Shown in pieces: positions 3,641 through 21,623 of a stretch of 25,832 nt of DNA. A program made the position numbers and the translations under genes. The notes beneath the pieces were generated by a model that was given only the letters and a program-made list of their open reading frames with translations, was not told the origin of the DNA and ran no database searches. Every line of letters begins with the position of its first letter. Within the stretch, counting starts at the first letter, position 1. This DNA comes from an uncultured Spirochaetaceae bacterium (GTDB taxonomy: Bacteria; Spirochaetota; Spirochaetia; DTKZ01), in assembly GCA_964529055.1 (NCBI GenBank), contig CAZGUL010000002.1:282-26113 (forward strand). The letters are read 5' to 3'.

Positions 3641-3669
3641 AATATAATATATATAGAGAAGTGCGTCAA
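3641..3669 (-). promoter_or_regulatory. sigma70-type promoter for glutaredoxin-osmC
   Basis: TTGACG (3669-3664) - 17 nt - TATATT (3646-3641) in an AT-rich intergenic stretch. Confidence 0.7.
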
Positions 3670-5147
3670 GTCTCCTGCTCGAAGGCCTTCGAAAGTCGCT
3701 CGATGATCGCGGTGACCTGCTCCTCGGTCTGCAGGCGGAAATCCGAAAGAATGGACTTGTCGATCTGGTCGAAGGTGACGATCCTGTCGCCGTAATTCGC
3801 GAAAAAGTTGGCAAGGTAAACGGTGTGGACGACGCTCCGGCTTGTCAGGGGCGACGCCTGGGGGTCGTGGTGGAATTTGATGGAATGCACCAGGGGCTCG
3901 GGGAAATTCCATTTTTCCGCAATCATGCCGCCGATCTGGGAGTGGTTGAGCCCGCCGGTCATGTCCTCGAAGAGCTGTCCCGGAATGTTTTTCTCCCTGC
4001 AGAAACGGGTTATCTTTTCGATCAGCTGGGGATGCACGGACGAGAAGATGATTTTTCCCATGTCGTGCAGGATTCCGCCGGCGTAGACGTCGTCCAGAAC
4101 GGCCTTGTTGCGCAGGAAATGTTTCGCCAGCGTATAGGCGTAAAAGGCAGTCCTGTAGGAGTGCTTCCACAGCTCCTTGCGCTTCGCGTCGTCCCGACCG
4201 CCGAGGATCTTCTGGGTTCCGTAGGAGTAGAGCAGGTTCTTCAGCCCCCGGGTCCCCACCATTTTGACGGCCTCCACGATGTTGTCCACCTTCTTCGGAA
4301 GCATGAACTGGGCGGAGTTGACGAGCTTCAGGAGATCGGCGGTGAGCGCGGGGTCCATCGATATCTGACGGGCCATGTCCTGTATCTCGCTGTCAGGATC
4401 GGAGAGAATCTGCTGCAGGAAAACGATGTTTTCCGGGAAATTCGGCAGGCTGTCGATTTCCTCGACGATCTTCTTGCTGAGGATGTCCAGGGATTCCATC
4501 TTCACCTGCGCCGTGGGAACGGTTATCCGTGCGATCGTCTCGCCGTTCGCGGTGTCGATGTCGAACGCGTCCTCGTCCAGGCCGAGTTTTTTCAGCATCA
4601 GCACGAGGATCACGATGCCCAGCCCGGCGCCTTCCGAATCGTCCAGCACCGTGGAGAGAGCCTCTTCCAGGGAAGCGAAGGCCCGGGAGCGGGCGATCCT
4701 GTCGTACACCCGGATCTGCTCCTTCTGGAGTATCTCCACGTTGTTGCAGACGTAGAGGTTCAGCACCGGTCCCTTGGTCTGAAAAACGACTTTAATGTAC
4801 AGGTTCGCTTCCTTCTGGAGCTTGAGCCAGAATTCGATGTTGTCCAGGGTCTCGGTCTTGAAATTCTCCATGCCGGTCCTGTACTGCTGGTCGTTCGTTA
4901 TATCCAGGTTTTTCTGCTTGAAATAAACGCGCTTCGTGTTGGCCTTTTTCGCGTTGACCGCCAGTTCCCGCAGACAGTAGGCCAGGGGATCCAGCAGCTT
5001 CTCCTGCCCCATCTCCTTGAGAAAAATCCCCAGAACCTGTTCCAGATAGATTTCCGTATCGTGGGGAAGCGTGTAGCTCTTGATCGTCAAAGGGATGGAA
5101 TTTCGCGCCGCGTGAACGACTTTCGCTACATCGACTTCCTGAGGCAT
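3666..5147 (-). CDS. HDOD-domain signalling protein with N-terminal GHKL/HATPase-like domain
   Basis: C-terminal HDOD: LPNFP, DPALTADLLKLVNSA, GILHDMGK, HSQIGGMIAEKWNFP. N-terminal ELAVNAKKA (N-box) and EGAGLG (G-box). Confidence 0.85.
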   Translation of the reverse strand: MPQEVDVAKVVHAARNSIPLTIKSYTLPHDTEIYLEQVLGIFLKEMGQEKLLDPLAYCLRELAVNAKKANTKRVYFKQKNLDITNDQQYRTGMENFKTETLDNIEFWLKLQKEANLYIKVVFQTKGPVLNLYVCNNVEILQKEQIRVYDRIARSRAFASLEEALSTVLDDSEGAGLGIVILVLMLKKLGLDEDAFDIDTANGETIARITVPTAQVKMESLDILSKKIVEEIDSLPNFPENIVFLQQILSDPDSEIQDMARQISMDPALTADLLKLVNSAQFMLPKKVDNIVEAVKMVGTRGLKNLLYSYGTQKILGGRDDAKRKELWKHSYRTAFYAYTLAKHFLRNKAVLDDVYAGGILHDMGKIIFSSVHPQLIEKITRFCREKNIPGQLFEDMTGGLNHSQIGGMIAEKWNFPEPLVHSIKFHHDPQASPLTSRSVVHTVYLANFFANYGDRIVTFDQIDKSILSDFRLQTEEQVTAIIERLSKAFEQET

Positions 5148-5219: not shown

Positions 5220-7619
5220 CTAATTGCCGCCGAAATCCTTCACCTGCAGGGCCATTTCGCGCAGCCGGCGCTGCACCCGGCCGTTCATGCTGCGGGGCGG
5301 AAAGGCGCCCCGGCTCCCCCGGACGCCGGCGGGGATCCCGGTCAGGATTTCCAGCCCCTCGTCCACCGTCGAAACGGCGTAGAGATGGAAGCTTCCGTTC
5401 CGCACCGCTTCCTGGGTCTCGGCGGACAGGATGAGGTTCGGCAGGTTGAGCCGGGGTATCACGACGCCCTGCGTGCCGGTGAGGCCGGTTTTCCGGCACA
5501 CTTCGAAGAAACCTTCGATCTTTTCCGATACGCCGCCCACCGGCTGGATGTCGCCCATCTGGTTGACCGACCCGGTAACGGCGATGTCCTGCCGCAGCGG
5601 AACGTCGGAAACGGCGGACAGCAGGGCGTAGATCTCCGCGGAGGAGGCGGAATCGCCGTCCACCTCGATGTAGCTCTGCTCCAGGCAGATGGTGGCCCGG
5701 ATCGACAGGGGAAAGTCCCTGGCGTACATGGCCTGGAGGTAGCCTTCGATGATGAGAACGCCCTTGTCGTGGATCTCGCCGGACAGGCCGGACTCGCGCT
5801 CGATGTTGATGACCCCGTCGTGCCCCGGGGCCGTCCGCGCCGTTATGACGAGGGGCCGCCCGAAGGCGTAATAGCCCCGGTCCAGGATTGCCAGGCCGTT
5901 GGTCCTGCCAACCAGGCTCCCTGAAAGGGCCATCAGGATTTCGCCGGACAGGATCTGTTCGTCGATTTTTTCCTCCGGCAGGTTGTGAAGGAATTTTCTT
6001 TCCTCCAGTGCCCTGCGAATCGAATCCCGGCCGACGAGTTTTTTTCCCGAAAGCCGGGCCCAATGGTCCGCCTCGCGGATGAGGTCGGCGATAAGCGAAA
6101 AGCGGGTGGTCAATTTGCTCCGGAACTCGCCGACACGCACACCGTACTCCACCACCGCGGCGATGCCCGACGAATCGAACGCGAGCAGTTTTTCCTCTCC
6201 GGAAATCTTCCGGATGAAGTCGATGTACTCACGGGTGCTTTTCCCGTTCCGGTCCATCACGGAATCGAATTCCGCCGGCACCTTGAAAAGCTTCGGGAAG
6301 TCCTCGTCCGAGTTGTACAGGAAATCGTAGACGTGTTCGCCGCCCATGATGATGACCTTCGTATCGATTTCCACCTGCTCGGGCTTCAGCGCCGGCACCT
6401 GGGCGAAAAAGGGGTTCGGCGGGTTCCGGATTTCCGTCCTGCCGTCTTCCAGGGCCCTCTTAAGGCTGTTCCAGGCGTCCTCCTCGTTCAGGATGTCCTC
6501 GGCCCGGAGGATCAGAAAACCGCCGGACGCCCGGACCAGGGCCCCTGCGCGGATCATCATGAAATTGGTGCGGGTCTCCCCGGCCATGTCGACCGCGCTT
6601 TCCTGACTGCCGAACAGGGCCGCGTAGTCCGGACGGGATTCGAAGATCACCGGGGCGCTCGCCATGTCCGCCGCATCGACGATGACATTGACCCCGTACC
6701 GAATCAGTGCGGGTCCGCCGGACGAGTCCTTCGCGGCCGCCTCGTCGGTGAACAGGAACAGATTGGCCTTGATGTCGGCTTCCGCCCGGAGGAGATAATC
6801 CCCTACCTTTTCCGCGGGGTACTCCCGCTTCAGACGGCCGATCTCGTGCCGGAGGTCCGCCTCGACGGCCTCCACCCGGAGGACCTGCAGTTCCTCCTCC
6901 ATTTTGACCCGCCGCCGGCGGAGTTCCATGAAGAGGGCCTTCAGCTCGTCCATGTGCCGGTAATATTTCTCCCGGGTATCGTTCCAGTATTTTTCGGTGA
7001 TTTCGCCGGACCCGACGCGTTTCTGCAGGTCCTCGAAACTGGTCGCCTCGCCCTTGTACAGCGGAAGAAGATCCGACGCCTGTTCCTCCGCGTCCCCGAT
7101 CTGGACGATCTTGAAGCCCCGGGCGGCGACCGCGCCTTCGAATTCCGCGAGCCGGCGGTTTTCCTCGCTTTCCAGGGCCTTCACGACCCGGTCCCGTTTT
7201 TCCGTAAAGGCGTCGCCCGCGAGTTTCGCCGGGACCAGGATTTTCAGGTTCTCCACCAGCCGGTGCATGTCCTTTTTGAAGCTGCGCCCCCCGCCGGCCG
7301 CGAAATACAGGACCCGGGGGTTTTCGGGTCTTTCGAAGTTGTAGACAAAAGCGATGTCCCGGCACCGGGATGTGTCGGACCGGTGTTTTTCCAGAATTTC
7401 CAGGATCGTGGTGCGCTTGCCCGTGCCGGGAAGCCCCGTTACGATGAGGTTGTAGCCTTTCGCGCGGATCGACATTCCCATCGTCAGGGCGCGGACGGCC
7501 CGCTCCTGTCCGATTATCAGGCTTTCGCCTGAACTTCCCGTGTCCAGGGCGGCGATTTCCTCTTCTGAAATCCCGAACAGGATGTCTTCGATGCGCAATT
7601 CCCGGGAGTTTTTTCTCAT
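5220..7619 (-). CDS. Lon-family (LonC/AAA_32-type) protease, about 799 aa
   Basis: Start reassigned to the ATG at 7619 (MRKNSREL). IIGQERA, Walker A GLPGTGK, Lon_C domain with VDGDSASSAE (Ser) and VGGVSEKIEGF (Lys) dyad. Confidence 0.9.
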   Translation of the reverse strand: MRKNSRELRIEDILFGISEEEIAALDTGSSGESLIIGQERAVRALTMGMSIRAKGYNLIVTGLPGTGKRTTILEILEKHRSDTSRCRDIAFVYNFERPENPRVLYFAAGGGRSFKKDMHRLVENLKILVPAKLAGDAFTEKRDRVVKALESEENRRLAEFEGAVAARGFKIVQIGDAEEQASDLLPLYKGEATSFEDLQKRVGSGEITEKYWNDTREKYYRHMDELKALFMELRRRRVKMEEELQVLRVEAVEADLRHEIGRLKREYPAEKVGDYLLRAEADIKANLFLFTDEAAAKDSSGGPALIRYGVNVIVDAADMASAPVIFESRPDYAALFGSQESAVDMAGETRTNFMMIRAGALVRASGGFLILRAEDILNEEDAWNSLKRALEDGRTEIRNPPNPFFAQVPALKPEQVEIDTKVIIMGGEHVYDFLYNSDEDFPKLFKVPAEFDSVMDRNGKSTREYIDFIRKISGEEKLLAFDSSGIAAVVEYGVRVGEFRSKLTTRFSLIADLIREADHWARLSGKKLVGRDSIRRALEERKFLHNLPEEKIDEQILSGEILMALSGSLVGRTNGLAILDRGYYAFGRPLVITARTAPGHDGVINIERESGLSGEIHDKGVLIIEGYLQAMYARDFPLSIRATICLEQSYIEVDGDSASSAEIYALLSAVSDVPLRQDIAVTGSVNQMGDIQPVGGVSEKIEGFFEVCRKTGLTGTQGVVIPRLNLPNLILSAETQEAVRNGSFHLYAVSTVDEGLEILTGIPAGVRGSRGAFPPRSMNGRVQRRLREMALQVKDFGGN

Positions 7620-7628
7620 GATTACCCC

Positions 7629-7657
7629 ATAATAGGAGCGCCCGCGGGAAGTGTCAA
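7629..7657 (-). promoter_or_regulatory. sigma70-type promoter for the Lon-like gene
   Basis: TTGACA (7657-7652) - 17 nt - TATTAT (7634-7629); ATG follows 9 nt later. Confidence 0.75.
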
Positions 7658-7680
7658 GGAAACCCCGGGCAGCCGGCCCC

Positions 7681-7709
7681 TTGCCCCCCCCGGGACGCAG
7701 CCGTATAAT
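7681..7709 (+). promoter_or_regulatory. sigma70-type promoter for nif3-lspA operon (likely leaderless)
   Basis: TTGCCC (7681-7686) - 17 nt - TATAAT (7704-7709); ATG follows 6 nt later. Confidence 0.75.
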
Positions 7710-7715
7710 GGAGCC

Positions 7716-8477
7716 ATGCTGCTGCGCGAACTGGACCGTTATTTCCGCTCTCTCCTTCGCATCGACGATATGGTGAAGATCGACGCGTCCCTGAACGGCA
7801 TTCAGGCCGGCCGCCCCGAGCAGAAGATCGGCCGGATCGCATTCGCCGTGGACGCCTGCATGGACTGCTTCCGCCTCGCGACCGCCTGGGGGGCGGAGCT
7901 CCTTTTCGTCCATCACGGTCTCTTCTGGGGGAAGGACCTGCGGGTCACCGGTTCCCACAGGGCCAGGCTGAAACACCTTCTGGATAACGACCTCGCCCTC
8001 TACGCGGCGCATCTTCCGCTGGACATGCATCCGGAGATCGGCAACAACGCGGGGATCGCCTGCGCCCTGGGCCTTGTGGAAACCGTCCCTTTCGGGACCT
8101 ACAAGGGCGTCGACATCGGCATCAAGGGCAGGTTCCCCCGGCCCGTGCGGCTTGCCGAGGTGGAGACCCTCCTGTTCGGCGGCGCGCCGGACGGGTCCCC
8201 CGGCCTGGCCTTCGGAAAGGAATTCGTGGAAACCGCGGGAATAGTTTCCGGCGGCGCGCCGTACGAGGCGTTTCAGGCCGCCGAGCAGGGCCTGGACCTG
8301 TACATCACCGGAGAGGGTTCCCATGCGGTGTACCATTTCGCCCAGGAGGAGGGGCTCAACGTGATTTTCGGCGGCCATTACCGGACCGAGACCTGGGGGG
8401 TGCGGCTCCTCGCGGAAAGGACGGCCCGCGAGACGGGCCTGGAAACCCGGTTCATCGACGTTCCCACGGGGCTGTGA
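7716..8477 (+). CDS. Nif3-like dinuclear metal-centre protein (YbgI family)
   Basis: NGIQ, AFAVDA, LFVHHGLFW, YAAHLPLDMHPEIGNN, YITGE and GGHYRTE motifs. Confidence 0.93.
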   Translation: MLLRELDRYFRSLLRIDDMVKIDASLNGIQAGRPEQKIGRIAFAVDACMDCFRLATAWGAELLFVHHGLFWGKDLRVTGSHRARLKHLLDNDLALYAAHLPLDMHPEIGNNAGIACALGLVETVPFGTYKGVDIGIKGRFPRPVRLAEVETLLFGGAPDGSPGLAFGKEFVETAGIVSGGAPYEAFQAAEQGLDLYITGEGSHAVYHFAQEEGLNVIFGGHYRTETWGVRLLAERTARETGLETRFIDVPTGL

Positions 8478-8479
8478 GA

Positions 8480-9019
8480 ATGGAAAAAATCGCACCTTCC
8501 GGGCTGCCCGCACCGGCGCGGGACAAAATTCTCCCCTTTTGTTTAACCGCGGGCATCGTCGCCGCGGACCAGATCACCAAGTGGCTCGTGGTGGGCAACA
8601 TTCCCCGGAGGACCGTGGGAGCCGCGTTTTTCGGCGATTTTCTGCGGATCATTCACGCCCGCAATCCCGGCATCGCCTTCAGCCTCGGCAGGGACCTTCC
8701 GGACGCGGTGCGGGGCATATTATTCACCGTTCTCCCCATCGTCATTCTGGCCGCCCTGGCGGTGTATTATTTCCGCTCCGACGAATTCACCCGGCTCCAG
8801 CGCTGGGCCGTGGCGGGCATCATCGGCGGAGGGGTCGGCAACCTGATCGACCGGGTCTTCCGCCCCGAGGGGGTCGTGGACTTCATCGACGTCAGATTTT
8901 TCGGCCTTTTCGGCCTGGACAGGTGGCCGACCTTCAACGTGGCGGACTCGTCGGTGGTGGTCTGCGGCGCGCTTCTGGCCGCGTCGATTCTCGCGCACAG
9001 GAAGGACGCCCATGAATAA
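8480..9019 (+). CDS. lspA: Lipoprotein signal peptidase II
   Basis: DQITK, N.GIAFS, GGVGNLIDR, VVDFI and WPTFNVADS motifs. ATG at 8480; an alternative GTG lies at 8474. Confidence 0.95.
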   Translation: MEKIAPSGLPAPARDKILPFCLTAGIVAADQITKWLVVGNIPRRTVGAAFFGDFLRIIHARNPGIAFSLGRDLPDAVRGILFTVLPIVILAALAVYYFRSDEFTRLQRWAVAGIIGGGVGNLIDRVFRPEGVVDFIDVRFFGLFGLDRWPTFNVADSSVVVCGALLAASILAHRKDAHE

Positions 9020-9313: not shown

Positions 9314-10981
9314 TCAGTAGCCGTCGGACATGGCCCGGTTCTGGTCCTTCTTGCAGAGCTCCGCGTACACGAAGCCCCGGGTCTTCAGCTTGTCCCTGAC
9401 TTCCTGCGGGAAGGGAAGGTACCGCCAGAAGATTCCCCGGACTTCCCGGTCGAGCTTCTGGGTGCCTTCGCTTTCCTTGGATATCCACAGGATGTAATCC
9501 TGGATGAAGGACTCCCGGACGTCTCCCTTCATCTTCCGTTCGGAGAACCACTGGTAGTACCAGCCCGTGAGGCCTTCCTCCATCCAGTAGTGCTGGGCCT
9601 TTTCCTTGGCGACCTGCCAGCGCATGTCCGCCAGGGCCGCGATGACCGCGGTCTTGAGTTCCTTCGGATACAGGGGGATCGCGACCCGTCCCCGTCCCGT
9701 CGCACGGTTGAACCGCTCGAAGGGTTCCCAGCAGATACCGGTGTCCCCGTAGCACGGGATCACCACGATGTTCGGCACGATGCGGTTCGTCTGCTGTTTG
9801 AAGGTGCGCAGGAAAAGCCCCGGGTCCAGATACTCCACGTCGGCCAGGATGTTGACCAGGTTTTCCCGGGTGCCTATGTCTAGGATGTTGCTGCGGATGT
9901 ACTGCTTCAGCAGAATGGGAAAATGGTTTCCCTGCCGGCCCACGCACATCTTGGCCATCTGCCGGACGGTGTTGAGCTCGTCCAGAATCGTCTTGTTGTC
10001 CACCGCGGCGCTGACCCCGAGTTCCTGTTCCTTTCGCCGCAGCTCTTCCATCTGCTCCCGGATGCCGTCGAGCTCGGAAAAATAGCGCAACTGGTCCCGG
10101 TTGACGGTTCCAAGACGCCGGAGGATGTCGCCGATATCGTTAAAGGCGCCCCGCTGTATCTCCGAGTACGGAAGCTTCAGCCCCGGAAGGTCGGGCCGGG
10201 TCTCGTGCTCGGAGATCTGCCGGACCCGCTCCTGGAGGCGGGCCTCCAGATCGTCCATCTCGTTCATCCTGTTCCGGATGAGCCCGAGCTGGGCCTCGTA
10301 CTTTCCCCGGGTCCGCTCCACGATGGCGTTCATCTTCTGCTTGTCGTCCCGCCGGGCCTGCTTCGTCTCGTCCTGGACGGAGGCGCTCACCTGCCCCCGT
10401 GCCACCGCCGTGAGCCACTCGTCCACGTAGTAAATCGGCTCGCCGCAGCGGTTGTCCCAGATGATTTTGGCGAGCATGTCCCTCTGCTCCGCCGAAATGA
10501 CCGTGGGCAGCAGGACCGAGTACCGCATGAAGAGCTTCTTGGGCATCGGCATGTCCCGGGTGATCTTGACGGCCAGGCGACCGAGGAGCTCCCAGTAGAC
10601 GGGAATGAGCCGGCCGCGGAACACCGAACGCTCCTGGGGGTCCTGGACTGTCATGAAGGAGCTGAAGTAACTGTGCAGTTTTTTGGATACGTCGCCCTCG
10701 CCGGAGAGGACGGTCTTGTAGAATTCCTTGTCCTGGAACAGGGGTTTGGACGGTTCTTCTATTTTTTCCGGCCGACGGAAGGCCCGCACGGCGGTATCGG
10801 CGCCTTCCAAGGGTTCCAGAAGTTCCGCGTCATCGGCGCCGCCTTCCTCGAACAGCTCGGCGAATTCAGGTTCTCCGTCCCGGTCCGCCGGCTCGGGGGC
10901 CTCTATCCCCATCAGGCCGGCGATTTCCGGATCAATCTCGCCTCTGAATCTGCTGTCCGAAGAAGACTGATCTTTGTTCAT
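9314..10981 (-). CDS. Hypothetical protein, about 555 aa, acidic N-terminus and central coiled coil
   Basis: Long ORF with strong GC3 bias. The ORF-track start (11035) lies inside the tRNA; the first plausible ATG is 10981 (MNKDQSS). Confidence 0.8.
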   Translation of the reverse strand: MNKDQSSSDSRFRGEIDPEIAGLMGIEAPEPADRDGEPEFAELFEEGGADDAELLEPLEGADTAVRAFRRPEKIEEPSKPLFQDKEFYKTVLSGEGDVSKKLHSYFSSFMTVQDPQERSVFRGRLIPVYWELLGRLAVKITRDMPMPKKLFMRYSVLLPTVISAEQRDMLAKIIWDNRCGEPIYYVDEWLTAVARGQVSASVQDETKQARRDDKQKMNAIVERTRGKYEAQLGLIRNRMNEMDDLEARLQERVRQISEHETRPDLPGLKLPYSEIQRGAFNDIGDILRRLGTVNRDQLRYFSELDGIREQMEELRRKEQELGVSAAVDNKTILDELNTVRQMAKMCVGRQGNHFPILLKQYIRSNILDIGTRENLVNILADVEYLDPGLFLRTFKQQTNRIVPNIVVIPCYGDTGICWEPFERFNRATGRGRVAIPLYPKELKTAVIAALADMRWQVAKEKAQHYWMEEGLTGWYYQWFSERKMKGDVRESFIQDYILWISKESEGTQKLDREVRGIFWRYLPFPQEVRDKLKTRGFVYAELCKKDQNRAMSDGY

Positions 10982-10993
10982 GCATGCTTCGTA

Positions 10994-11067
10994 TGGAGGT
11001 GACGGGAATCGAACCCGTGACCCCTTGAATGCCATTCAAGTACTCTAGCCAGCTGAGCTACACCCCC
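10994..11067 (-). tRNA. tRNA-Ala(GGC), CCA not encoded
   Basis: GGGGGTG-TA-GCTC-AGCTGGCTA-GAGT-A-CTTGA-ATGGCAT-TCAAG-GGGTC-ACGGG-TTCGATT-CCCGT-CACCTCC-A; G3:U70 Ala identity pair and the A32-U38 pair typical of tRNA-Ala(GGC). Confidence 0.97.
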
Positions 11068-11124: not shown

Positions 11125-12621
11125 TTAATAGTGATGTCCGAGCCCTATGAAGGCCTCCCATCTCCTCCAGCGCTTGCCGTCGTCGTCACGCCGGGGGGCA
11201 AGACCGGTGATCTGGTGGTCGTCCAGCACCGCTTCCAGGTCGAAGCCCAGAGAAGCCCGCAGGTACAGGCTCCGGGCGAACTTCGGGAAAACCACGACCT
11301 GAAGGCCGCCGCCGTAGTACATCTCGTCGAGTTTGAAGGACTCGTCCTCCCGTTTGACCAGCGCGAAGTCGAGGAAGGGGCCGGCCTGCACCTCGAAGTA
11401 GGGGGCGAGGAACCACATCCACATTTTCACGGCGATGTCGGTGTTCAGGAAAAGTCCCGCGTCGCCCTGCAGGCGGTCGTCCAGGATGCCCCGGATGGGC
11501 TCGCCAACGTCGTCGCCGTCCTCCAGGCCCCGCTCCTTGTCGAACTGGAAAAAGCCGCTGAACCGTCCGGAAATGCCGATCCACGAAAAGGCCTTGTGGC
11601 CCACAGCCTTCCAGTCCAGGGAGTTTTTCCACCGGGCTTCCCCGGGGTTGTAGATGACCGTATTGCCGAAGGAGAGTTCCGCCCCGTCGCGGAAATTGCC
11701 GTACCAGTCCACCCTCTCGACGAAGACCGCGTGGGTAAAACCGGGCTCCGCCCCCCTGCGTTCCTCGCTGAGCTCCTTGTCGAACCGGTACTTGACCTGG
11801 GCGAATACGTCCGGGCCGTACTGCAGGGCGCCAAGGCGGCCCAGGGTCCAGGGAAGGTCGAAGTCCGTCCCGAAGGCAACCTTGCTCTGGTGATACCGCC
11901 TGTCCCCGTAGTAATCGTCGTCGTCGTACACGTAGGCCTGCGACAATTCCAGGGTCCAGTCCTGCCTGTCCACCGGGAAATCCACGGCCATGGACGCGGT
12001 GATGTCGAATTTATAGTCGTCGTCGTCGGCGTTGTACGTCAGGCCCTGGGTCAGGCCGAACCGCCAGTCCTTGTCCACCAGCCGGAACGGCACGATGAAG
12101 GACAGCTCGTTGCCGAACTCGTTGTCGCCCGTGTCGGTGAAGGTGTAGTCCAGGTTCAGCTTCAGGGTTTCCATGGAGCCAAGGAAGTTGAAGTCCCGGG
12201 CGCGGATGCTGAGGAGAAGTCCCGAGTTCGAGTCGTATTTGAAATAGGGCAAAACAATGACGTTCCAGGTGTCCACCGTCGTCACGACAACGTGAACGGC
12301 CGTCATTCCGTCGGGCCGGGCGCTGGTCGTATAGGAAACCTTGCCTTCCGACAGGACCCGCTGGTTCATGACGACCTGTTCCCGGTCCTTCAGGTACGCC
12401 TCGACCTCCCCGATGGTGACGAAGGTGCGTCCTTCCTCGATCTCGATCTTTTTTTCAAGGGCCCGCTCCCAGGTCCGTCCCGTGATCTGGAACGTTATAT
12501 CCTGGATGACGAACTTTTTTTCGTCTTTTACGGCGGGTCCGCCCTGGGCCGCGGCAATTCCCGCCGCGAACAGAAACGCGACACACGCCACAGCAACTTT
12601 TTTCCCTGGTCGCATTCGCAA
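11125..12621 (-). CDS. Omp85/BamA-TamA-like outer-membrane beta-barrel protein with one POTRA-like domain
   Basis: Signal peptide (KKVAVACVAFLFAAGIAAA-Q); about 85-aa POTRA-like segment ending VVTTVDTW; NFLG; alternating beta strands; IRG motif; FLDF; C-terminal FIGLGHHY. Start is TTG at 12621 or ATG at 12615. Confidence 0.7.
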   Translation of the reverse strand: MRMRPGKKVAVACVAFLFAAGIAAAQGGPAVKDEKKFVIQDITFQITGRTWERALEKKIEIEEGRTFVTIGEVEAYLKDREQVVMNQRVLSEGKVSYTTSARPDGMTAVHVVVTTVDTWNVIVLPYFKYDSNSGLLLSIRARDFNFLGSMETLKLNLDYTFTDTGDNEFGNELSFIVPFRLVDKDWRFGLTQGLTYNADDDDYKFDITASMAVDFPVDRQDWTLELSQAYVYDDDDYYGDRRYHQSKVAFGTDFDLPWTLGRLGALQYGPDVFAQVKYRFDKELSEERRGAEPGFTHAVFVERVDWYGNFRDGAELSFGNTVIYNPGEARWKNSLDWKAVGHKAFSWIGISGRFSGFFQFDKERGLEDGDDVGEPIRGILDDRLQGDAGLFLNTDIAVKMWMWFLAPYFEVQAGPFLDFALVKREDESFKLDEMYYGGGLQVVVFPKFARSLYLRASLGFDLEAVLDDHQITGLAPRRDDDGKRWRRWEAFIGLGHHY

Positions 12622-15334: not shown

Positions 15335-16015
15335 CTATCCGGCCTGGCGGAGGATCTTTTTCGGAAGCCCGGCGAACACGGCGATATCCTCATCCGAACC
15401 GACGACGAGGACCACATCGCCTTCGGTAAACGTGTAATCCGGCGCGAAGAAAAAATAATCGCCCTCCTCGCCGTTCTTTATCGCCACCACATTTATCCCC
15501 GCCGACTGTCTGAGCCGGAGCTCCACCAGGGGTTTTCCGTAGAACCTGGGAGGAACCCGGACTTCCGCCATGCCTATGCCGCTGCCGACCCGCAGAAACT
15601 GCTGCAGACGTGACGAAAACAGCCGCGGAAGTATGGCCCGCACGGCATCCCGCGGGGGGTAGACGATTTCATCGGCGCCGATGATGCGCAGGATGCCGCC
15701 CTGTCTTTCACTTTGAGCCCGCGCGATGATTTTCCCGGCCTTGATGGAATGCAGATGATGGGTCACCAGAATCGCCGCTTCCAGATGTTCTCCCAGGTCC
15801 ACGATCGCGTAATCGAGATGATGATGTATCATCTTCTCGAGCAGGGCTTCGTTGTTCACGTCCATCACATACGCTTCGGCCACGCGGTCCTTGTACGTGT
15901 CGATCACTTCCTCCTGCCGGTCGATGATGATGAGTTCCACATCGAGCTCCAGAAGCTCGTCGAGCATTCTGCGTCCGAAGGATCCCAACCCGATCAGTGC
16001 TATACGCCGTTTCAT
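15335..16015 (-). CDS. ktrA: Ktr/Trk K+ uptake regulatory subunit (RCK_N + RCK_C)
   Basis: IGLGSFG Rossmann motif, IIARA, IGADEIVYP, and a C-terminal INVVAIK...GD..LVVG RCK_C domain. Confidence 0.88.
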   Translation of the reverse strand: MKRRIALIGLGSFGRRMLDELLELDVELIIIDRQEEVIDTYKDRVAEAYVMDVNNEALLEKMIHHHLDYAIVDLGEHLEAAILVTHHLHSIKAGKIIARAQSERQGGILRIIGADEIVYPPRDAVRAILPRLFSSRLQQFLRVGSGIGMAEVRVPPRFYGKPLVELRLRQSAGINVVAIKNGEEGDYFFFAPDYTFTEGDVVLVVGSDEDIAVFAGLPKKILRQAG

Positions 16016-16025
16016 GAAAAACCTC

Positions 16026-17360
16026 TCACGCGATCAGTACGGTGCCTTCCGGGTAGACCGAGACTTCGCGGCAACTTCGCGCGATCGGCAGGGACATCGC
16101 GATTAGTCCGACCCTTCCGGCAAACATGGTCAGGATGAGAACGACTTTGCCGGCTCCCGACAGGTGCGATGTCGCACCCAGCGAAAGACCCACCGTCCCG
16201 AAAGCGGAGACCGTCTCGAAAAGAAGATCGAGAAAGGACGGAGCTCCCGCGGATCGGGAGAGCGTTTCCGTTACGGAAAGCGCGAAAGCGGACATACCGA
16301 CAAGGGTCACCGCTTTCAAAACGAGAAGCCCCGCCGAAGTCGTCGTCTTCTTCGTAAGACGGCGGCCGTCGACGACTATGTCGCCGTACTCGTCCCCATG
16401 GCGGAACAGATACATAAGCACGATAAAGAACGCCGTGACCTTCACTCCGCCCGCGATGGAGACGGGCGCTCCGCCCACGAACATAAGGAACATGGCAAGA
16501 ACCTTCGACGGCAGGGTCATCGCTCCCTGGTCCAGCACGTTGAAACCGGCCGTCCTCGGCGTGACGGACTGAAACAGCGCATTCACCAGGCGATCTTTTC
16601 CGGACAGCGGAGCGAGCAGGTTTTCCGCCTCGAACAGATAGAACATCGCGCAGCCGCCCGCCAGAAGCAGAAAAGTCATCGTTACAACGATCTTTGTATG
16701 ATAGGTGATCCGATATCTGCGCCTCCATACACCGATCGCCAGTTCCTGTATGACCACGAAGCTCAGGCCCCCGGACACGATGAGCCCCATCACGATAAGA
16801 AGAAGAAAAGAGTTCCCCGCGAAACCGGCGAGGCTGTCGCTGAAGGTCGAAAACCCGGCGTTGCAGAAGGCCGAAACTGAATGGAAAACAGCGGTGAAAA
16901 GCGAGGCGGGAGTCCCGGCCGCGGAAAAACGGAAATACAGAAACAGGGCTCCGGCGGTCTCGATGCATATCGTAAACAGCAGGATGTTTCGTATTATACG
17001 GGCGGGATTCTGCTCGACGGTCCCCATGTAGTACGCCCGGATCATTCTCGACTTGTTGAGCGAGATGCGAAGCCCGGGAATGATGAGGTAAATTGTGGTG
17101 AAGGTGATCACGCCCAATCCGCCGAACTGGATCAGGAAAAGGATCACAGTCTGCCCGAACCTGCTGTACGAGGCCGTATCCACCGTGATGAGCCCTGTCA
17201 CGCAGACCGCCGAGGTCGCGGTGAACAGAGCGTCGAGCCGCGAAAGCCTTCCCTGACCATTCCATGCCGAAGGAAGGGACAGCAGGATCGCTCCGACAAG
17301 AATTATCAGAATAAAATAGCCGAAGAGAACGAACTTGTCGGAGGAAACGATCCTTCTCAT
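16026..17360 (-). CDS. ktrB: Ktr/Trk K+ uptake membrane subunit
   Basis: Four pore motifs: TATSAVCVTGL, SAFCNAGFS, TPRTAGF and SAFGTVGLS; gate GG.K and MFAGRVG. Confidence 0.92.
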   Translation of the reverse strand: MRRIVSSDKFVLFGYFILIILVGAILLSLPSAWNGQGRLSRLDALFTATSAVCVTGLITVDTASYSRFGQTVILFLIQFGGLGVITFTTIYLIIPGLRISLNKSRMIRAYYMGTVEQNPARIIRNILLFTICIETAGALFLYFRFSAAGTPASLFTAVFHSVSAFCNAGFSTFSDSLAGFAGNSFLLLIVMGLIVSGGLSFVVIQELAIGVWRRRYRITYHTKIVVTMTFLLLAGGCAMFYLFEAENLLAPLSGKDRLVNALFQSVTPRTAGFNVLDQGAMTLPSKVLAMFLMFVGGAPVSIAGGVKVTAFFIVLMYLFRHGDEYGDIVVDGRRLTKKTTTSAGLLVLKAVTLVGMSAFALSVTETLSRSAGAPSFLDLLFETVSAFGTVGLSLGATSHLSGAGKVVLILTMFAGRVGLIAMSLPIARSCREVSVYPEGTVLIA

Positions 17361-18031
17361 ATTTTAAGCCTGTATCCGACGCCCGGTTCGGTTATCAGCA
17401 CCGCGGGACGGGAGGGTTCCGTTTCAATTTTCTTCCTAAGGCCGTTGATGTAGACCCTGAGATTGTTCGCGTCCTGTCCCTCGTGCCTTCCCCAGACCTC
17501 GGAGATGAGCTGGTCGTGGGTGACGATCTTTCCTGGATGTTGAACAAGAAAGCGCAGAATGGAGTACTCCGTCGGCGTGATCTTGACGCTTTCATCGCCG
17601 CACGCGACTGTCCTGTTCACCAGGTCGACGGACAGCCGCCCGACACGCACCTCCGTCCCGACATCCGGAGGGAAACGACGCCTCAGCGCGACCCGGATCC
17701 GCGCGACAAGCTCAGCGGTGTTGAACGGCTTGACCAGATAGTCGTCGGCGCCGGAATTCAGAAGCTGGACGATATCGGCTTCCCCGTTCCGCACGGAAAG
17801 AACGATGACAGGCACCTGCGATCCGGCCCTGAGGGCTTTCAGGACTTCCAGGCCCTCCATATCGGGAAGACCAAGGTCAAGCAGGACGATGTCGGGCTTG
17901 ATTCCCGCGAACCGCTGAATTCCGTCGCCGCCCCGGCCTTCCTCGCGCACGCTGAAACCCTGCTTTTCCAGACTTATCCGCAGAAGACGCCTGATATGCT
18001 TATCGTCCTCGATTACCAGCACTTCCGTCAT
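17357..18031 (-). CDS. kdpE: OmpR-family response regulator KdpE
   Basis: Start at 18031 (MTEVLVIEDD; ATGA overlap with kdpD). LLDLGLPD, GADDYLVKPF, LRVYINGLRKKIE..PSRP..LITEPGVGYRL. Confidence 0.88.
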   Translation of the reverse strand: MTEVLVIEDDKHIRRLLRISLEKQGFSVREEGRGGDGIQRFAGIKPDIVLLDLGLPDMEGLEVLKALRAGSQVPVIVLSVRNGEADIVQLLNSGADDYLVKPFNTAELVARIRVALRRRFPPDVGTEVRVGRLSVDLVNRTVACGDESVKITPTEYSILRFLVQHPGKIVTHDQLISEVWGRHEGQDANNLRVYINGLRKKIETEPSRPAVLITEPGVGYRLKI

Positions 18032-19968
18032 ATTTCCTCGCTTTCGACGGGCCGAACGCAGCCGGGAACCGACACCTCGATGCACAGTCCTCCGCCCGGT
18101 CGGGGCGATGCCAGAATCGTACCCCCGTGGGCTTCGATGATCCCCCTGCAGATCGACAAGCCAAGTCCGAAACCGGCTTCCGACTCCGTATTCGCTCCGC
18201 GATAAAACTTCTCGAAAATGAACGGCATCTGGTCCAGCGGGACTCCGGGTCCCGAATCGCAGACCCGGAGCCGGAGACCGCCCCCCTGCACCATCCCCAT
18301 CAGCCAGATCTGCGTTCCCGCAGGCGTATGACGCACGACGTTCTGCAGCAGATTGGTCAGGACCTGCACGAACAGCACGAAATCCACTTCGAGCTGACAG
18401 GACCCGCTCTGGACCGACACCTCGACCGTATACCCCTGCAGGTCCCGCGAAAGAGAATCAAGTACTACGCCGATGACGTCTTCGATCAATACCGGTTCCT
18501 TCCGGAGCTTCAGGTTCTTCGATTCCAGGCGGCTCATGGAAAGGAGGTTCTCGACGATGGAATTCAGTTTTTCGGATGCCTGCAGGACTTCGTCGAGAAG
18601 GTCCGCCCTTGCCTGGGGATCTTCCGCCGTCGACGGCTCCATCATGGCGGTCACGGCGCCTTTTATCGTCGTGAGGGGAGTCCTGAGTTCGTGGGACACG
18701 AGATTCAGAAGAATCTTTCCGAGCCGCTCCGATTCCGCCGTCACCAGGCTTTTCTGCTTCGCCTGCGTCAGCTGCTCACGCTCGAGGGCCTGAGAAAGGC
18801 TCTGCAGCACCGTAAGGAGAAGATCTTCCTGCTCCGCACTCCAGAGCTTGTCGTACGAAAGCCGGATACCGAAAACCCCCACGACCGAATCCGGCGTCGC
18901 CAGGGGAATGTAGTGGAACATCGCGGTTTCGAAATTCTGGGCATAGCGGCCGCATATCCTGTTGTTCTGGAAACACCATTCCGCGGTTTTTCTTTCTTCG
19001 CCGGGAAGCTTGAACTCCCGGATGCTGTAGACTCTATCCGCGAGACATTGACGTTCGTCTCCGGATATCATGATGCATTGCCCGCCGAGCTGATGCTCGA
19101 TGCCGGTCAGGCTGGAAATGATCAGGTCCTCGGTCGTTTTCTTTTCTGAAAGCCCTTCCACGAAATTGTAGAGAAAGGACATCCGTTCTTCCCGCATTTC
19201 CAGCATATCCGCGTTTGTCCGGACACGGGTGGCCAGGAACCCCGTTGTCAGCGCGGTCACGAAGAACATCAGGAACATCAGCATGTCCTCCGCCGATCCG
19301 ATCGTGAAAGTGTTGAGGGGGGGAATAAAGAAGAAGTTCCAGCTCACGGCCGCAAGGACTGCGGCGAGCAGCACCGTCGTCCGCTTCAGGAAAAAAGCGA
19401 GCGCGGTGATGACCAGAAGGTATACGATTGAAATACCGTGATAGCCGAAGACCGGGCGTATCATCATGGTGAATATCGTTACCGCGGATACGATGCCCAA
19501 TCCCGCGAGGGGTTGGAGAAATGGGGCGTTTTTCCAGATGAACCGGAATTGCCGATCCTTTTTTTTCGCCTCGAAATCCTTCTCCTGTAGGACAAGAACG
19601 TCAATGGGACCGCTCCGGCGGAGTATCTGGCGGGAGAGGTACGATCGGGAGCGGAAACGCAAGGCGCCGTGCGGGCCGGATTTTCCGATGATTATCTGCG
19701 TGGCGCCCTTCATGCGGGCATACCCGACGATGGCCGCCGCGACATCATCCGATGTCAGCGCTCCTATTTCCGCACCAAGGCGCCGCGCAAGATCAAGGTT
19801 CTTCCGGAGCACGTCCCGCCCCTCGGAACGCGACTCCCCCGGTACATCGACGTGCAGGACGGTCCACCGGGCATTGAGGGGACCAACAAGTTCATGGGTC
19901 CACCGGATCAGGTATTCCGAATGAGGACTTGAGCTGATGGCAACCAGAAAATGCTTTTTCTCCGCCAT
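18028..19968 (-). CDS. kdpD: KdpD-like sensor histidine kinase lacking the N-terminal KdpD domain (USP - 4TM DUF4118 - GAF - HisKA - HATPase)
   Basis: USP (LVAISSSP...QIIIGKS), WNFFFIPP..TF TM motif, VSHELRTPLT, NLLQNVVRH, DSGPG, FEKFYR and GLGLSIC. Confidence 0.88.
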   Translation of the reverse strand: MAEKKHFLVAISSSPHSEYLIRWTHELVGPLNARWTVLHVDVPGESRSEGRDVLRKNLDLARRLGAEIGALTSDDVAAAIVGYARMKGATQIIIGKSGPHGALRFRSRSYLSRQILRRSGPIDVLVLQEKDFEAKKKDRQFRFIWKNAPFLQPLAGLGIVSAVTIFTMMIRPVFGYHGISIVYLLVITALAFFLKRTTVLLAAVLAAVSWNFFFIPPLNTFTIGSAEDMLMFLMFFVTALTTGFLATRVRTNADMLEMREERMSFLYNFVEGLSEKKTTEDLIISSLTGIEHQLGGQCIMISGDERQCLADRVYSIREFKLPGEERKTAEWCFQNNRICGRYAQNFETAMFHYIPLATPDSVVGVFGIRLSYDKLWSAEQEDLLLTVLQSLSQALEREQLTQAKQKSLVTAESERLGKILLNLVSHELRTPLTTIKGAVTAMMEPSTAEDPQARADLLDEVLQASEKLNSIVENLLSMSRLESKNLKLRKEPVLIEDVIGVVLDSLSRDLQGYTVEVSVQSGSCQLEVDFVLFVQVLTNLLQNVVRHTPAGTQIWLMGMVQGGGLRLRVCDSGPGVPLDQMPFIFEKFYRGANTESEAGFGLGLSICRGIIEAHGGTILASPRPGGGLCIEVSVPGCVRPVESEEI

Positions 19969-20066: not shown

Positions 20067-21356
20067 CTACTCCAGGGCCTTGAACAGGATGGCCGACAGG
20101 AAGCCGAAAAGGGTTGCGAGCCCCGTCACGGAACCGCCCTTGCTGTACGCCTCCGGCAGCATCGTTTCGGCGATCATCGTCAGCATCGCTCCCGCCGCCG
20201 TCCCCTCAAGCAGCGTGAAAAGGAAGGGCGGCATTCCTTCGAAGAACAGATTGCCCGCCAGTGAACCGACCCCGGTCATCACCATCAGCGACGTCCACAT
20301 GATCAGGATCCGGGAATACGAGTAGTTGTTCTTCCGCATCGACGCGGAGCTGGAAAGCGCCTCGGGAAAATTCGACAGGAAAAGCCCCGCGAGCAGGGAA
20401 AGGCTTATCCGGGAATGCACCATGCTGGATCCGATGACCAGGGACTCGGGGATGCCGTCCAGGAGCATTCCCAGCCAGATGGCCAGGGGGGCGTGGGAAT
20501 GGGCGGAGGCGGCCTCGCGGATTTCCACGGCAGTCGGGGCGCAATGCTCCTCGCCCAGGTGGCCGGCGGCCTTCCGCATCCAGCGTTCGGCTTCCTCTTC
20601 CGGAATGACCTTTCGCTCCTTCAGGGCCGCGATGCGCTCCTCCGCGACGCGGCGGAAGATCCTCATCAGGGTCGGGGACGTGGCGACCAGCCGGTCGAAG
20701 GAATCCTTGAAGACGATCCAGAGCCGGACGTCCCCGGCCGCGACCGCCGAGGCCGAACGGGGTTCGCCGGTTATCAGGGCCATTTCCCCGAAGACATCCC
20801 CGGGACCCAGCGTCGCGAGCTTCTCCCCCCGCCGGAAGTCCACGATGTCCACGGAGCCCTCCTCCACGATGAAGAGGCTGTCCCCCGGCTCGCCCTGGCG
20901 GATGATGGTGGAGCCTTTTTTGCAGACCCGGCCGGCGATGGAAGGGACCAGGGCGGCGATTTCCTCCGGCGGGAGCCCGTTGAAGAGCGGTATGCCCCCG
21001 AGCCTGCGGAAAAGGACCTTGAGTTTCCGGGCTTTCAGCTTGCGCATGTATCTCTGGGTCGTGGCGGCCTTGCGTAGGAAGGCGCCTTTTCCGTTCAGGA
21101 CCTGGTTGAGCCCCTCGAACAGGAATCCCCCGAAGGCTGCGCCGATCACCAGCGGAAGAAAATGCCTGTGGCGGACGGCTTCGGCGACCAGATCGACCGT
21201 GAGGGCGGACAGAAGTGCCCCGGCCCCGAAAGCGGTCAGGGCCGCCAGGACCCTGTCCCGGGGAGACCGGAACCGCGCCGCGGCCGCCCCCAATGGCAGC
21301 GACACCGCGCTTATGAGGCCCACGAGAAAAGCGCCCAGGAGAGGATTTTCCGGCAT
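20067..21356 (-). CDS. ZIP-family metal transporter with a cyclic-nucleotide-binding domain inserted in the TM3-TM4 loop
   Basis: ZIP motifs FGAGALL (TM2), LDGIPE (TM4), SNFPE (TM5) and AAGAMLTMIAETMLPEA (TM7). cNMP domain IIRQGEPGDSLFIVEEG.V...GDVFGEMALITGEPRSASAVA. AAGGAGG RBS. Confidence 0.88.
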   Translation of the reverse strand: MPENPLLGAFLVGLISAVSLPLGAAAARFRSPRDRVLAALTAFGAGALLSALTVDLVAEAVRHRHFLPLVIGAAFGGFLFEGLNQVLNGKGAFLRKAATTQRYMRKLKARKLKVLFRRLGGIPLFNGLPPEEIAALVPSIAGRVCKKGSTIIRQGEPGDSLFIVEEGSVDIVDFRRGEKLATLGPGDVFGEMALITGEPRSASAVAAGDVRLWIVFKDSFDRLVATSPTLMRIFRRVAEERIAALKERKVIPEEEAERWMRKAAGHLGEEHCAPTAVEIREAASAHSHAPLAIWLGMLLDGIPESLVIGSSMVHSRISLSLLAGLFLSNFPEALSSSASMRKNNYSYSRILIMWTSLMVMTGVGSLAGNLFFEGMPPFLFTLLEGTAAGAMLTMIAETMLPEAYSKGGSVTGLATLFGFLSAILFKALE

Positions 21357-21380
21357 GGATCTCCTCCTTCCCGGGCATCG

Positions 21381-21389
21381 ATTATAGCA
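21381..21389 (-). promoter_or_regulatory. Extended -10 promoter (TGcTATAAT) for the ZIP-cNMP gene
   Basis: Minus strand reads TGCTATAAT, 24 nt upstream of the ATG; no clear -35. Confidence 0.6.
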
Positions 21390-21401: not shown

Positions 21402-21623
21402 CTATGCGGATTTTCTCGCCGCCGCCGCGTGGTTCGGGATCTCCCGCAGATAATCCGTCCGCAGCAGGGTTTCGAAAAGGCGGCGCGGCATGCTTTCGAT
21501 CTTCTCGACTTCATGGCCGTCCCGGAAAACGACGATCGCCACCTCCAGGACGTCCCCGCTTTCCGCCAGGATGTTCAGGAATGACTCCGAACCGGGATGC
21601 GATTTCACCTTGTACTGAAACAT
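21402..21623 (-). CDS. Small hypothetical protein, 73 aa (MFQYKVKSHPGSESFLNIL...)
   Basis: Forms the 3' part of track ORF 21402..21992. ATG at 21623 has a GGAGGG RBS, and the ORF fills an otherwise empty gap with normal protein composition. Confidence 0.7.
   Translation of the reverse strand: MFQYKVKSHPGSESFLNILAESGDVLEVAIVVFRDGHEVEKIESMPRRLFETLLRTDYLREIPNHAAAARKSA

Follow-up and report, generated by a model that had tools for sequence, protein, structure and literature searches.

A ZIP-fold membrane protein with a cyclic-nucleotide-binding domain inserted in its TM3-TM4 loop: a candidate cyclic-nucleotide-regulated cation transporter from an uncultured spirochaete

The stretch of DNA analysed here, referred to as the window, comprises 25,832 nucleotides from an uncultured Spirochaetaceae bacterium (GenBank assembly GCA_964529055.1, contig CAZGUL010000002.1, positions 282 to 26,113) and encodes on its reverse strand a protein in which a complete cyclic-nucleotide-binding (CNB) domain lies between the third and fourth transmembrane (TM) helices of what sequence profiles and fold comparison identify as a divergent ZIP. 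We consider it probable, at roughly 60%, that this protein, here called ZIP-CNB, is a ZIP-fold cation transporter regulated by cyclic nucleotide monophosphates (cNMPs), that is, an inner-membrane, elevator-type transporter of divalent cations in which a cAMP- or cGMP-binding CNB domain would replace the His-rich regulatory TM3-TM4 loop. The architecture is real, widespread and uncharacterised, but not undiscovered. An initial annotation of the window had described a ZIP transporter with a complete CNB domain in its cytoplasmic loop, and the open reading frame (ORF), the Pfam domains and the topology of an AlphaFold2 (AF2) model all agree with that description. The gene and its parts are as follows, with residue numbers referring to the 429-residue product.

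20067..21356, reverse strand: complete coding sequence of the ZIP-CNB fusion, 429 residues plus stop (ORF list; third-position GC 0.84; homologs; ratio of nonsynonymous to synonymous substitution, dN/dS, 0.18 against the L001 homolog)
21381..21389, reverse strand: extended -10 promoter-like element TGcTATAAT, 25 nt upstream of the ATG, tentative (read from the sequence)
21361..21372, reverse strand: strong ribosome-binding site (RBS) GGGAAGGAGGAG (read from the sequence)
21087..21356, reverse strand: ZIP TM1-TM3, residues 1-90 (AF2 helices 5-29, 34-62 and 66-89; weak TIGR00820 zip match at residues 12-107; conservation)
20997..21086, reverse strand: clade-wide G-x-F-L-R-K..T-T motif at the cytoplasmic end of TM3, then a basic helix, residues 91-120 (conservation; AF2 helix 97-120)
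20616..20996, reverse strand: CAP/PKA-type CNB domain, beta-roll plus B and C helices, residues 121-247 (PF00027, PDB sequence matches, Foldseek)
20739..20792, reverse strand: phosphate-binding cassette (PBC) FGEMALITGEPRSASAVA, residues 189-206 (conservation, PBC census, alignment with PKG and PKA)
20493..20615, reverse strand: two short helices joining the CNB C-helix to TM4, residues 248-288 (AF2 helices 253-266 and 276-284; conservation)
20070..20492, reverse strand: ZIP TM4-TM8 with the transport site, residues 289-429 (Pfam Zip at residues 262-420; hhalign; Foldseek)
20442..20462, reverse strand: TM4 motif LDGIPES, residues 299-305 (hhalign columns: D300 = BbZIP H177, G301 = N178, E304 = E181)
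20358..20375, reverse strand: TM5 motif SNFPEA, residues 328-333 (hhalign columns: S328 = BbZIP Q207, which is His in ZupT; N329 = D208; E332 = E211)
20148..20171, reverse strand: TM7 motif AETMLPEA, a clade signature, residues 396-403 (T398, M399, P401, E402 and A403 invariant; clade census)

The reading frame is far beyond what chance would produce, because it has hundreds of full-length homologs with identities of 53-77% and because dN/dS in comparison with its closest homolog (77% identical) is 0.13-0.23 in each module, which shows that purifying selection acts on all modules of the protein. GC content by codon position is 0.64/0.47/0.84, in line with what the window's other real genes show, overall GC being ~62%. 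The gene forms a unit by itself, with its own RBS and promoter-like element; the latter is graded tentative because a consensus scan that required both hexamers gave no full sigma-70 site.

A word-indexed search with ZIP-CNB returned 2,537 matches, the best 120 of which are all full-length proteins of either ~430 or ~610 residues with 42-77% identity by BLASTP (coverage is full for the shorter class and 72-90% for the longer). Those of the 120 that bear a name in their source are called 'cyclic nucleotide-binding domain-containing protein' or 'CRP-like cAMP-binding protein', and in one case 'ZupT'. Scanning 185,579 species-representative genomes identified 515 carriers in many phyla. The best 80 of the 515 are all metagenome-assembled genomes (MAGs); among them the closest are Spirochaetota (65%), and others belong to Bacteroidota, Latescibacterota, Rokubacteria, Gammaproteobacteria (Pseudohongiella, SAR86 and Oceanococcus), Nitrospirae, Elusimicrobia, Omnitrophota and further groups. 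Identity across phyla is about 55%. One carrier MAG, L086, bears the label 'archaeon'. The initial annotation had rated the fusion the best candidate for a new system in the window and knew of no characterised ZIP built in this way; with 515 species-level genomes carrying it the architecture is common in databases, and what stands is that it is uncharacterised, in agreement with a full-text literature search that found no description of the fusion, a search for which most subscription journals lie outside coverage, so that absence is no proof.

The AF2 model, built on 74 homologs (predicted local distance difference test, pLDDT, 77.8; predicted template-modelling score, pTM, 0.56), begins with three TM helices, continues through a basic helical linker into a beta-roll CNB domain flanked by helices, and ends with five further TM helices. 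This is the 3+5 arrangement of the ZIP family with a long variable TM3-TM4 loop in the modelled secondary structure, and it is the same succession of three helices, CNB domain and five helices that the annotation had proposed. The motifs it quoted are likewise all present (FLRKAATTQRYMRKLKARKLK at residues 93-113, FGEMALITGEPRSAS at 189-203, LDGIPES at 299-305 and SNFPEA at 328-333), and the CNB boundaries it gave, about 21005-20625, are correct and correspond to residues 118-244. The basic helix after TM3 is the one with which the CNB module begins. Conservation was counted over 74 one-CNB family members, in which the linker positions G91, F93, L94, R95 and K96 that follow TM3 are invariant and D55 on TM2 is nearly so. 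The connector between the CNB domain and TM4, modelled at low confidence, holds the invariant W259 and the nearly invariant H286. A short His remnant that had been noted in the loop is otherwise not conserved; since only H286 is kept (in at least 90% of the family), we reject it as vestigial evidence. The loop is most simply placed in the cytoplasm, because its start is basic, as the positive-inside rule would have it, and because the CNB domain would bind a cytoplasmic ligand.

The case for cNMP binding rests on the insert. Pfam cNMP_binding (PF00027) matches residues 144-226 with E=3.9e-25 and 88 bits (cutoff 27.5), and PDB sequence matches to PKG, PKA-R and MloK1, with E from 1e-36 to 1e-22, align the PBC residue for residue. 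By Foldseek the modelled domain gives TM-scores of 0.77-0.86 to PKA-type CNB domains, and the best matches are cAMP- or cGMP-bound structures of the MloK1 CNB domain (TM-score 0.82-0.86, 40-42% identity). The cassette contains both the Gly-Glu and the Arg-[Ser/Thr/Ala]-Ala elements (FGEMALITGEPRSA), consistent with the annotation's view that it is intact: in the 74 members G190 and R200 do not vary and at least 90% have E191, and a census of 146 one-CNB proteins found GE..R[ST]A in 97 and the Arg in almost all. The end of the cassette reads RSA, as it does in MloK1. In sum, the insert is predicted to be competent to bind cAMP or cGMP, with a specificity between them that is not readable from RSA alone.

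Sequence profiles and modelled fold mark the membrane part as a genuine, though divergent, ZIP, an assignment on which Pfam, the relatives that lack a CNB domain, profile-profile alignment and the fold of TM4-8 all agree. In ZIP-CNB itself Pfam Zip (PF02535) matches residues 262-420 with 36.1 bits (cutoff 35.1), and the NCBIfam zip model TIGR00820 gives the weak N-terminal match listed above. Ten clade relatives, eight of them without a CNB domain, were also scanned with Pfam Zip; nine of the ten reach the cutoff or exceed it (35.5-75 bits), the exception being P0209 with 26. The CNB-less members span 26-75 bits, and several relatives match over the full-length profile. Alignment by hhalign of a deep clade profile of TM4-8 with ZupT plus BbZIP gave 95% probability and E=3.6e-8 over 111 columns, as against 12.6% for a shallow TM-only profile aligned with ZupT alone, in which TM7 was paired with TM2 of ZupT, a mismatch that goes back to the internal repeat. 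When the full-length model was compared with the PDB, the top 50 fold matches were CNB domains only. With a model of TM4-8 only, the half of the membrane part that the fold comparison covers, the top three matches were BbZIP structures (8czj_B, 8czj_A and 5tsb) with probabilities of 0.99-1.0, TM-scores of 0.63-0.64 and a root-mean-square deviation of 4.1-4.8 A, the next match having a probability of 0.13. The ZupT equivalog model NF003243 (cutoff 252 bits) does not match ZIP-CNB and gives 18-35 bits with CNB-less relatives, and NCBIfam holds no model dedicated to the fusion. ZIP-CNB thus belongs to the ZIP superfamily by hidden Markov model, profile and fold, and is not ZupT-type.

In the transport site of BbZIP the metal ligands are H177, E181, Q207 and E211 (PMC9278863). 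The hhalign columns lay LDGIPES on LHNFPEG of ZupT TM4 and LSNFPEA on LHNIPEG of TM5, column for column, in agreement with the annotation's observation that His-free LDGIPE and SNFPE motifs stand where His-type ZIPs have HNxPEG. The His/Asn pattern of the ZIP binuclear M1/M2 centre is therefore replaced (H to D300, N to G301, H/Q to S328), while the P-E core of both motifs is retained along with E304, N329 and E332. These positions are under strong constraint, with L299, D300, P303 and E304 on TM4 invariant, and N329, P331 and E332 on TM5 invariant or nearly so. The site is accordingly described as a His-free variant in which the second metal position, M2, has probably been lost. A site rich in carboxylate, amide and hydroxyl groups with Gly in place of the M2 Asn suggests a single-metal site preferring a cation harder than Zn2+, for which Mn2+ or Fe2+, and also Mg2+ or Ca2+, would be candidates. 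A preference for metals other than Zn is made plausible, as the sole support, by the precedent of ZIP8, in which added His residues move selectivity from Cd/Fe/Mn towards Zn (PMC10372143).

The wider family shows how far the His-free site noted in the annotation extends. An exhaustive phmmer search with TM4-8 only against 1.84 billion cluster representatives (E<=1e-3) gave 1,987 matches. Among the best 150 of these, 44 have the arrangement N-CNB-C, 35 N-CNB-CNB-C and one has three CNB hits; 15 are N-C proteins without a CNB domain and the remainder are mostly fragments. The motifs [LI]D[GAS]xPES, [SA]NxPE[AS] and ..PEA are common to all these architectures, and because CNB-less members share them the His-free site is a trait of the clade and not a result of the fusion. 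The flanks of the insertion are shared as well, with GG[FY]LRK after TM3 and AIWLG before TM4 occurring also in CNB-less members. In the latter, short loops are His-rich, with 7-15% His overall and 15%, 13%, 11% and 10% in P0170, P0209, P0212 and P0248, an argument from sequence that transition metals are what the clade handles and that the slot of the metal-sensing loop is taken by the CNB domain in the fusions. To judge from these architectures, the TM3-TM4 loop of the clade is a plug-in site that takes up one to three CNB domains. Two other CNB-less members, P0257 and P0219, have long, eukaryotic-looking low-complexity loops rich in Lys, Glu and Ser; the clade may extend beyond bacteria.

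A broader proposal builds on this diversity, and we advance it more tentatively than the cNMP regulation of ZIP-CNB itself. A large, hitherto unnoticed clade of bacterial ZIPs would possess a TM3-TM4 socket for sensor modules, the modules being His-rich loops, one canonical CNB domain, or tandem CNB folds that have His for the phosphate-clamp Arg and probably sense something else; the one-CNB members would then be the first second-messenger-gated elevator metal transporters, in which cAMP or cGMP is coupled directly to the uptake of a hard divalent cation (Mn2+ or Fe2+, or even Ca2+ or Mg2+) across many environmental phyla. A rough neighbour-joining tree, without support values, places the two-CNB class in one nearly monophyletic block with CNB-less members scattered, and does not settle the direction in which CNB domains were gained or lost.

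The two-CNB class (~610 residues; P0107, P0113, P0114 and others, including the loci L007:8001-9827 and L050:6001-7892) is informative about what the slot can accommodate. Both of its cassettes are conserved yet non-canonical (FGRMAFFxGxPHAT and FGxxSFLTGxxHTV), with the Glu lost and the Arg replaced by His. These proteins probably do not bind cNMP, and their conserved His may point to a metal or other ligand. By extension, the single insert of ZIP-CNB might not be a cAMP/cGMP sensor but might recognise a metal or some other small molecule, or act only in dimerisation or as a structural element, as some domains of the CRP/FNR superfamily do, with the ZIP regulated in some other way. The systematic loss of Glu and Arg in both domains of the sister class demonstrates that the fold can be re-purposed in this position, and no cyclase gene is consistently adjacent to the ZIP-CNB gene. 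We nevertheless regard this alternative as unlikely, since the one-CNB class keeps the full cNMP signature described above (G190, R200, E191 and R[ST]A), the insert is 40-42% identical to a MloK1 domain that binds cAMP and cGMP, and conservation of this kind across phyla is hard to explain without binding of phosphate and ribose.

Of similarly low probability in our estimate is that the membrane domain does not transport transition metals and would instead carry Mg2+ or Ca2+, or form a channel-like path gated by cNMP, an analogue of CNG channels on a ZIP scaffold. The replacement of both HNxPEG His residues by D300 and S328, the Gly at the M2 Asn position, the hard oxygen ligands offered by Asp, Glu, Glu, Asn and Ser, and the failure of the NCBIfam ZupT model to recognise the protein are all compatible with such a change of substrate. 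However, CNB-less members with the same site motifs have the His-rich loops (10-15% His) typical of transition-metal ZIPs, and the P-E core of both motifs is retained together with the PEA motif of TM7.

How a cNMP-regulated ZIP might operate can be outlined from the elevator mechanism of the family. ZIPs are two-domain elevators, with a static, dimerising scaffold (TM2, 3, 7 and 8) and a mobile transport domain that contains the metal site (TM1, 4, 5 and 6), and the cytoplasmic half of TM4 undergoes the largest rearrangement between metal-bound and metal-free states (PMC9278863). Because TM3 belongs to the scaffold and TM4 to the transport domain, the TM3-TM4 loop is a covalent bridge between them. 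In ZIP-CNB the invariant GxFLRK motif would attach the N-helix of the CNB domain to TM3, and the C-helix, or lid, would run through the two short connector helices into TM4. Given these attachments, cNMP binding, by moving the lid with respect to the beta-roll and N-helix in the canonical way, would alter the tether between scaffold and transport domain, and the elevator stroke would be allowed or prevented accordingly. Metal flux, in turn, would track intracellular cNMP, instead of or besides metal occupancy of a His-rich loop, and a second messenger would switch metal uptake on or off.

Several observations weigh against this account. The Pfam Zip score of ZIP-CNB itself is marginal (36.1 versus 35.1 bits), Foldseek matches BbZIP at weak E-values (0.1-0.3), and a loop-deleted profile of the TM segments matches no PDB sequence at E<=10. 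The placement of the CNB domain relative to the TM helices is of low confidence, with pLDDT below 50 at both connectors (residues 91-102 and 268-288); since confidence in the model is lowest there, the predicted coupling geometry is not established. CNB folds of the CRP/FNR type are able to bind ligands other than cNMPs. Among 86 homolog loci (6 looked up and 80 obtained by genome scan with all-versus-all ORF clustering), the gene has no consistent association with a cyclase or a metalloregulator, and Rfam models, run over the window plus 6 loci, matched a tRNA only and no riboswitch. No neighbour family is conserved in the 86 loci, where the sole recurrent cluster is one of generic ABC ATPases, and with no conserved neighbour and no riboswitch the genomic context backs neither a substrate nor a ligand.

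Comparison with characterised proteins places ZIP-CNB between two kinds of system. BbZIP of Bordetella bronchiseptica (PDB 5TSA/5TSB/8CZJ) and the GufA-type ZupT of E. coli share with it the 8-TM, 3+5 fold, the x-x-x-P-E motifs on TM4 and TM5, and a variable regulatory cytoplasmic loop between TM3 and TM4. The sequences are remote, however: the motif His residues are replaced in ZIP-CNB (H to D300, H/Q to S328), the M2 Asn is Gly, the acidic E240 on TM6 of BbZIP has no counterpart, and the loop is a folded CNB domain of 130 residues instead of a short His-rich segment. In eukaryotic ZIPs of the LIV-1/ZIP4 type the same loop serves cytoplasmic regulation and sensing, but there it is disordered and metal-binding, whereas that of ZIP-CNB is folded and a putative second-messenger receptor. 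Among the cNMP-gated channels (MloK1, SthK, CNG/HCN), the CNB domain of MloK1 is closest to that of ZIP-CNB and has the same PBC (GEMAL..GEPRSA). These channels share with our proposal the concept of a membrane ion path directly under cNMP control, but they are built on a tetrameric 6-TM P-loop pore with a C-terminal CNB domain attached through a C-linker; ZIP-CNB lacks such a pore, its membrane part matches only ZIPs, and its CNB domain is inserted internally between the elevator domains. SLC9C1, the Na+/H+ exchanger of sperm, is, as proposed for ZIP-CNB, an elevator-type secondary transporter regulated by a covalently attached CNB domain. It is eukaryotic, however, with a C-terminal CNB domain that acts in concert with a voltage-sensor domain, an NhaA-type fold and another substrate. 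By analogy, ZIP-CNB may work like a cNMP-gated channel or like SLC9C1 while being a member of neither family.

To our knowledge the control of metal uptake in bacteria is understood almost entirely as transcriptional (Zur, Fur, MntR and riboswitches), and we know of few bacterial cNMP effectors beyond CRP-family regulators and a few channels. Were cAMP or cGMP to gate a metal importer directly, this would constitute a new post-translational layer of control, and ZIP-CNB a new class of bacterial cNMP effector. A folded, ligand-operated domain between scaffold and transport domain would also be a natural experiment on the elevator model, and could yield a ligand-switchable ZIP for structural work in which states with and without cNMP are trapped. 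Annotation would gain as well, since an abundant, conserved family is now mis-described as 'CRP-like cAMP-binding protein'.

On the 3' side of the ZIP-CNB gene, on the same strand, lie four genes for potassium sensing and uptake, which together resemble a two-component system of the Kdp type that has Trk, and not KdpFABC, as its partner (15335-19968, reverse strand), and a FemAB-like gene lies upstream in divergent orientation.

18028-19968, reverse strand: KdpD-like kinase (Usp+DUF4118+HisKA+HATPase) without the N-terminal KdpD domain
17357-18085, reverse strand: OmpR-type regulator
16026-17360, reverse strand: trkH
15335-16015, reverse strand: trkA

Membership of ZIP-CNB in this cluster, with a role in K+ sensing or uptake, is invited by the common strand and order and by the 98 nt, containing only a weak hairpin, that separate it from the downstream kinase gene, but is very improbable and rejected largely because neighbourhood conservation is absent (KdpD-like, TrkH or TrkA proteins stand beside ZIP-CNB in 0 of the 86 homolog loci), the gene moreover having its own -10 element and RBS. 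Since no neighbourhood is conserved, the adjacency is best regarded as coincidental. Weak, partial matches to generic histidine-kinase and response-regulator genes occur in 4 of the 86 loci.

Individual loci contain neighbours of potential relevance. In one, a 7TMR-DISM class III cyclase (Guanylate_cyc; L003:2771-4555, reverse strand) precedes the ZIP-CNB gene at a distance of ~3.4 kb, and stand-alone CNB proteins are encoded within 5 kb of that gene in L005 and L007; these cases are suggestive and do not amount to a conserved association. In the window itself, a 73-residue ORF beginning MFQYKVKSHPGSE (21402-21623, reverse strand) lies directly upstream of the ZIP-CNB gene with its own RBS, GGGGAGGG. 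Its codon-position GC of 0.62/0.36/0.77 is of the coding type; the ORF that encloses it has no Pfam match, and tblastn found nothing similar beside any homolog. Elsewhere on the reverse strand, two ORFs of 573 residues (9314-11035) and 498 residues (11125-12621) have coding-type composition and no Pfam match. A tRNA gene (10994-11067, reverse strand) overlaps the annotated start of the former, whose true start is therefore further downstream. The remaining genes of note, also on the reverse strand, encode a LonC/LonB-like AAA protease of 1097 residues (5220-8513; AAA_32, LonC_helical, Lon_C) and a 493-residue HDOD/HD-domain signalling protein (3666-5147).

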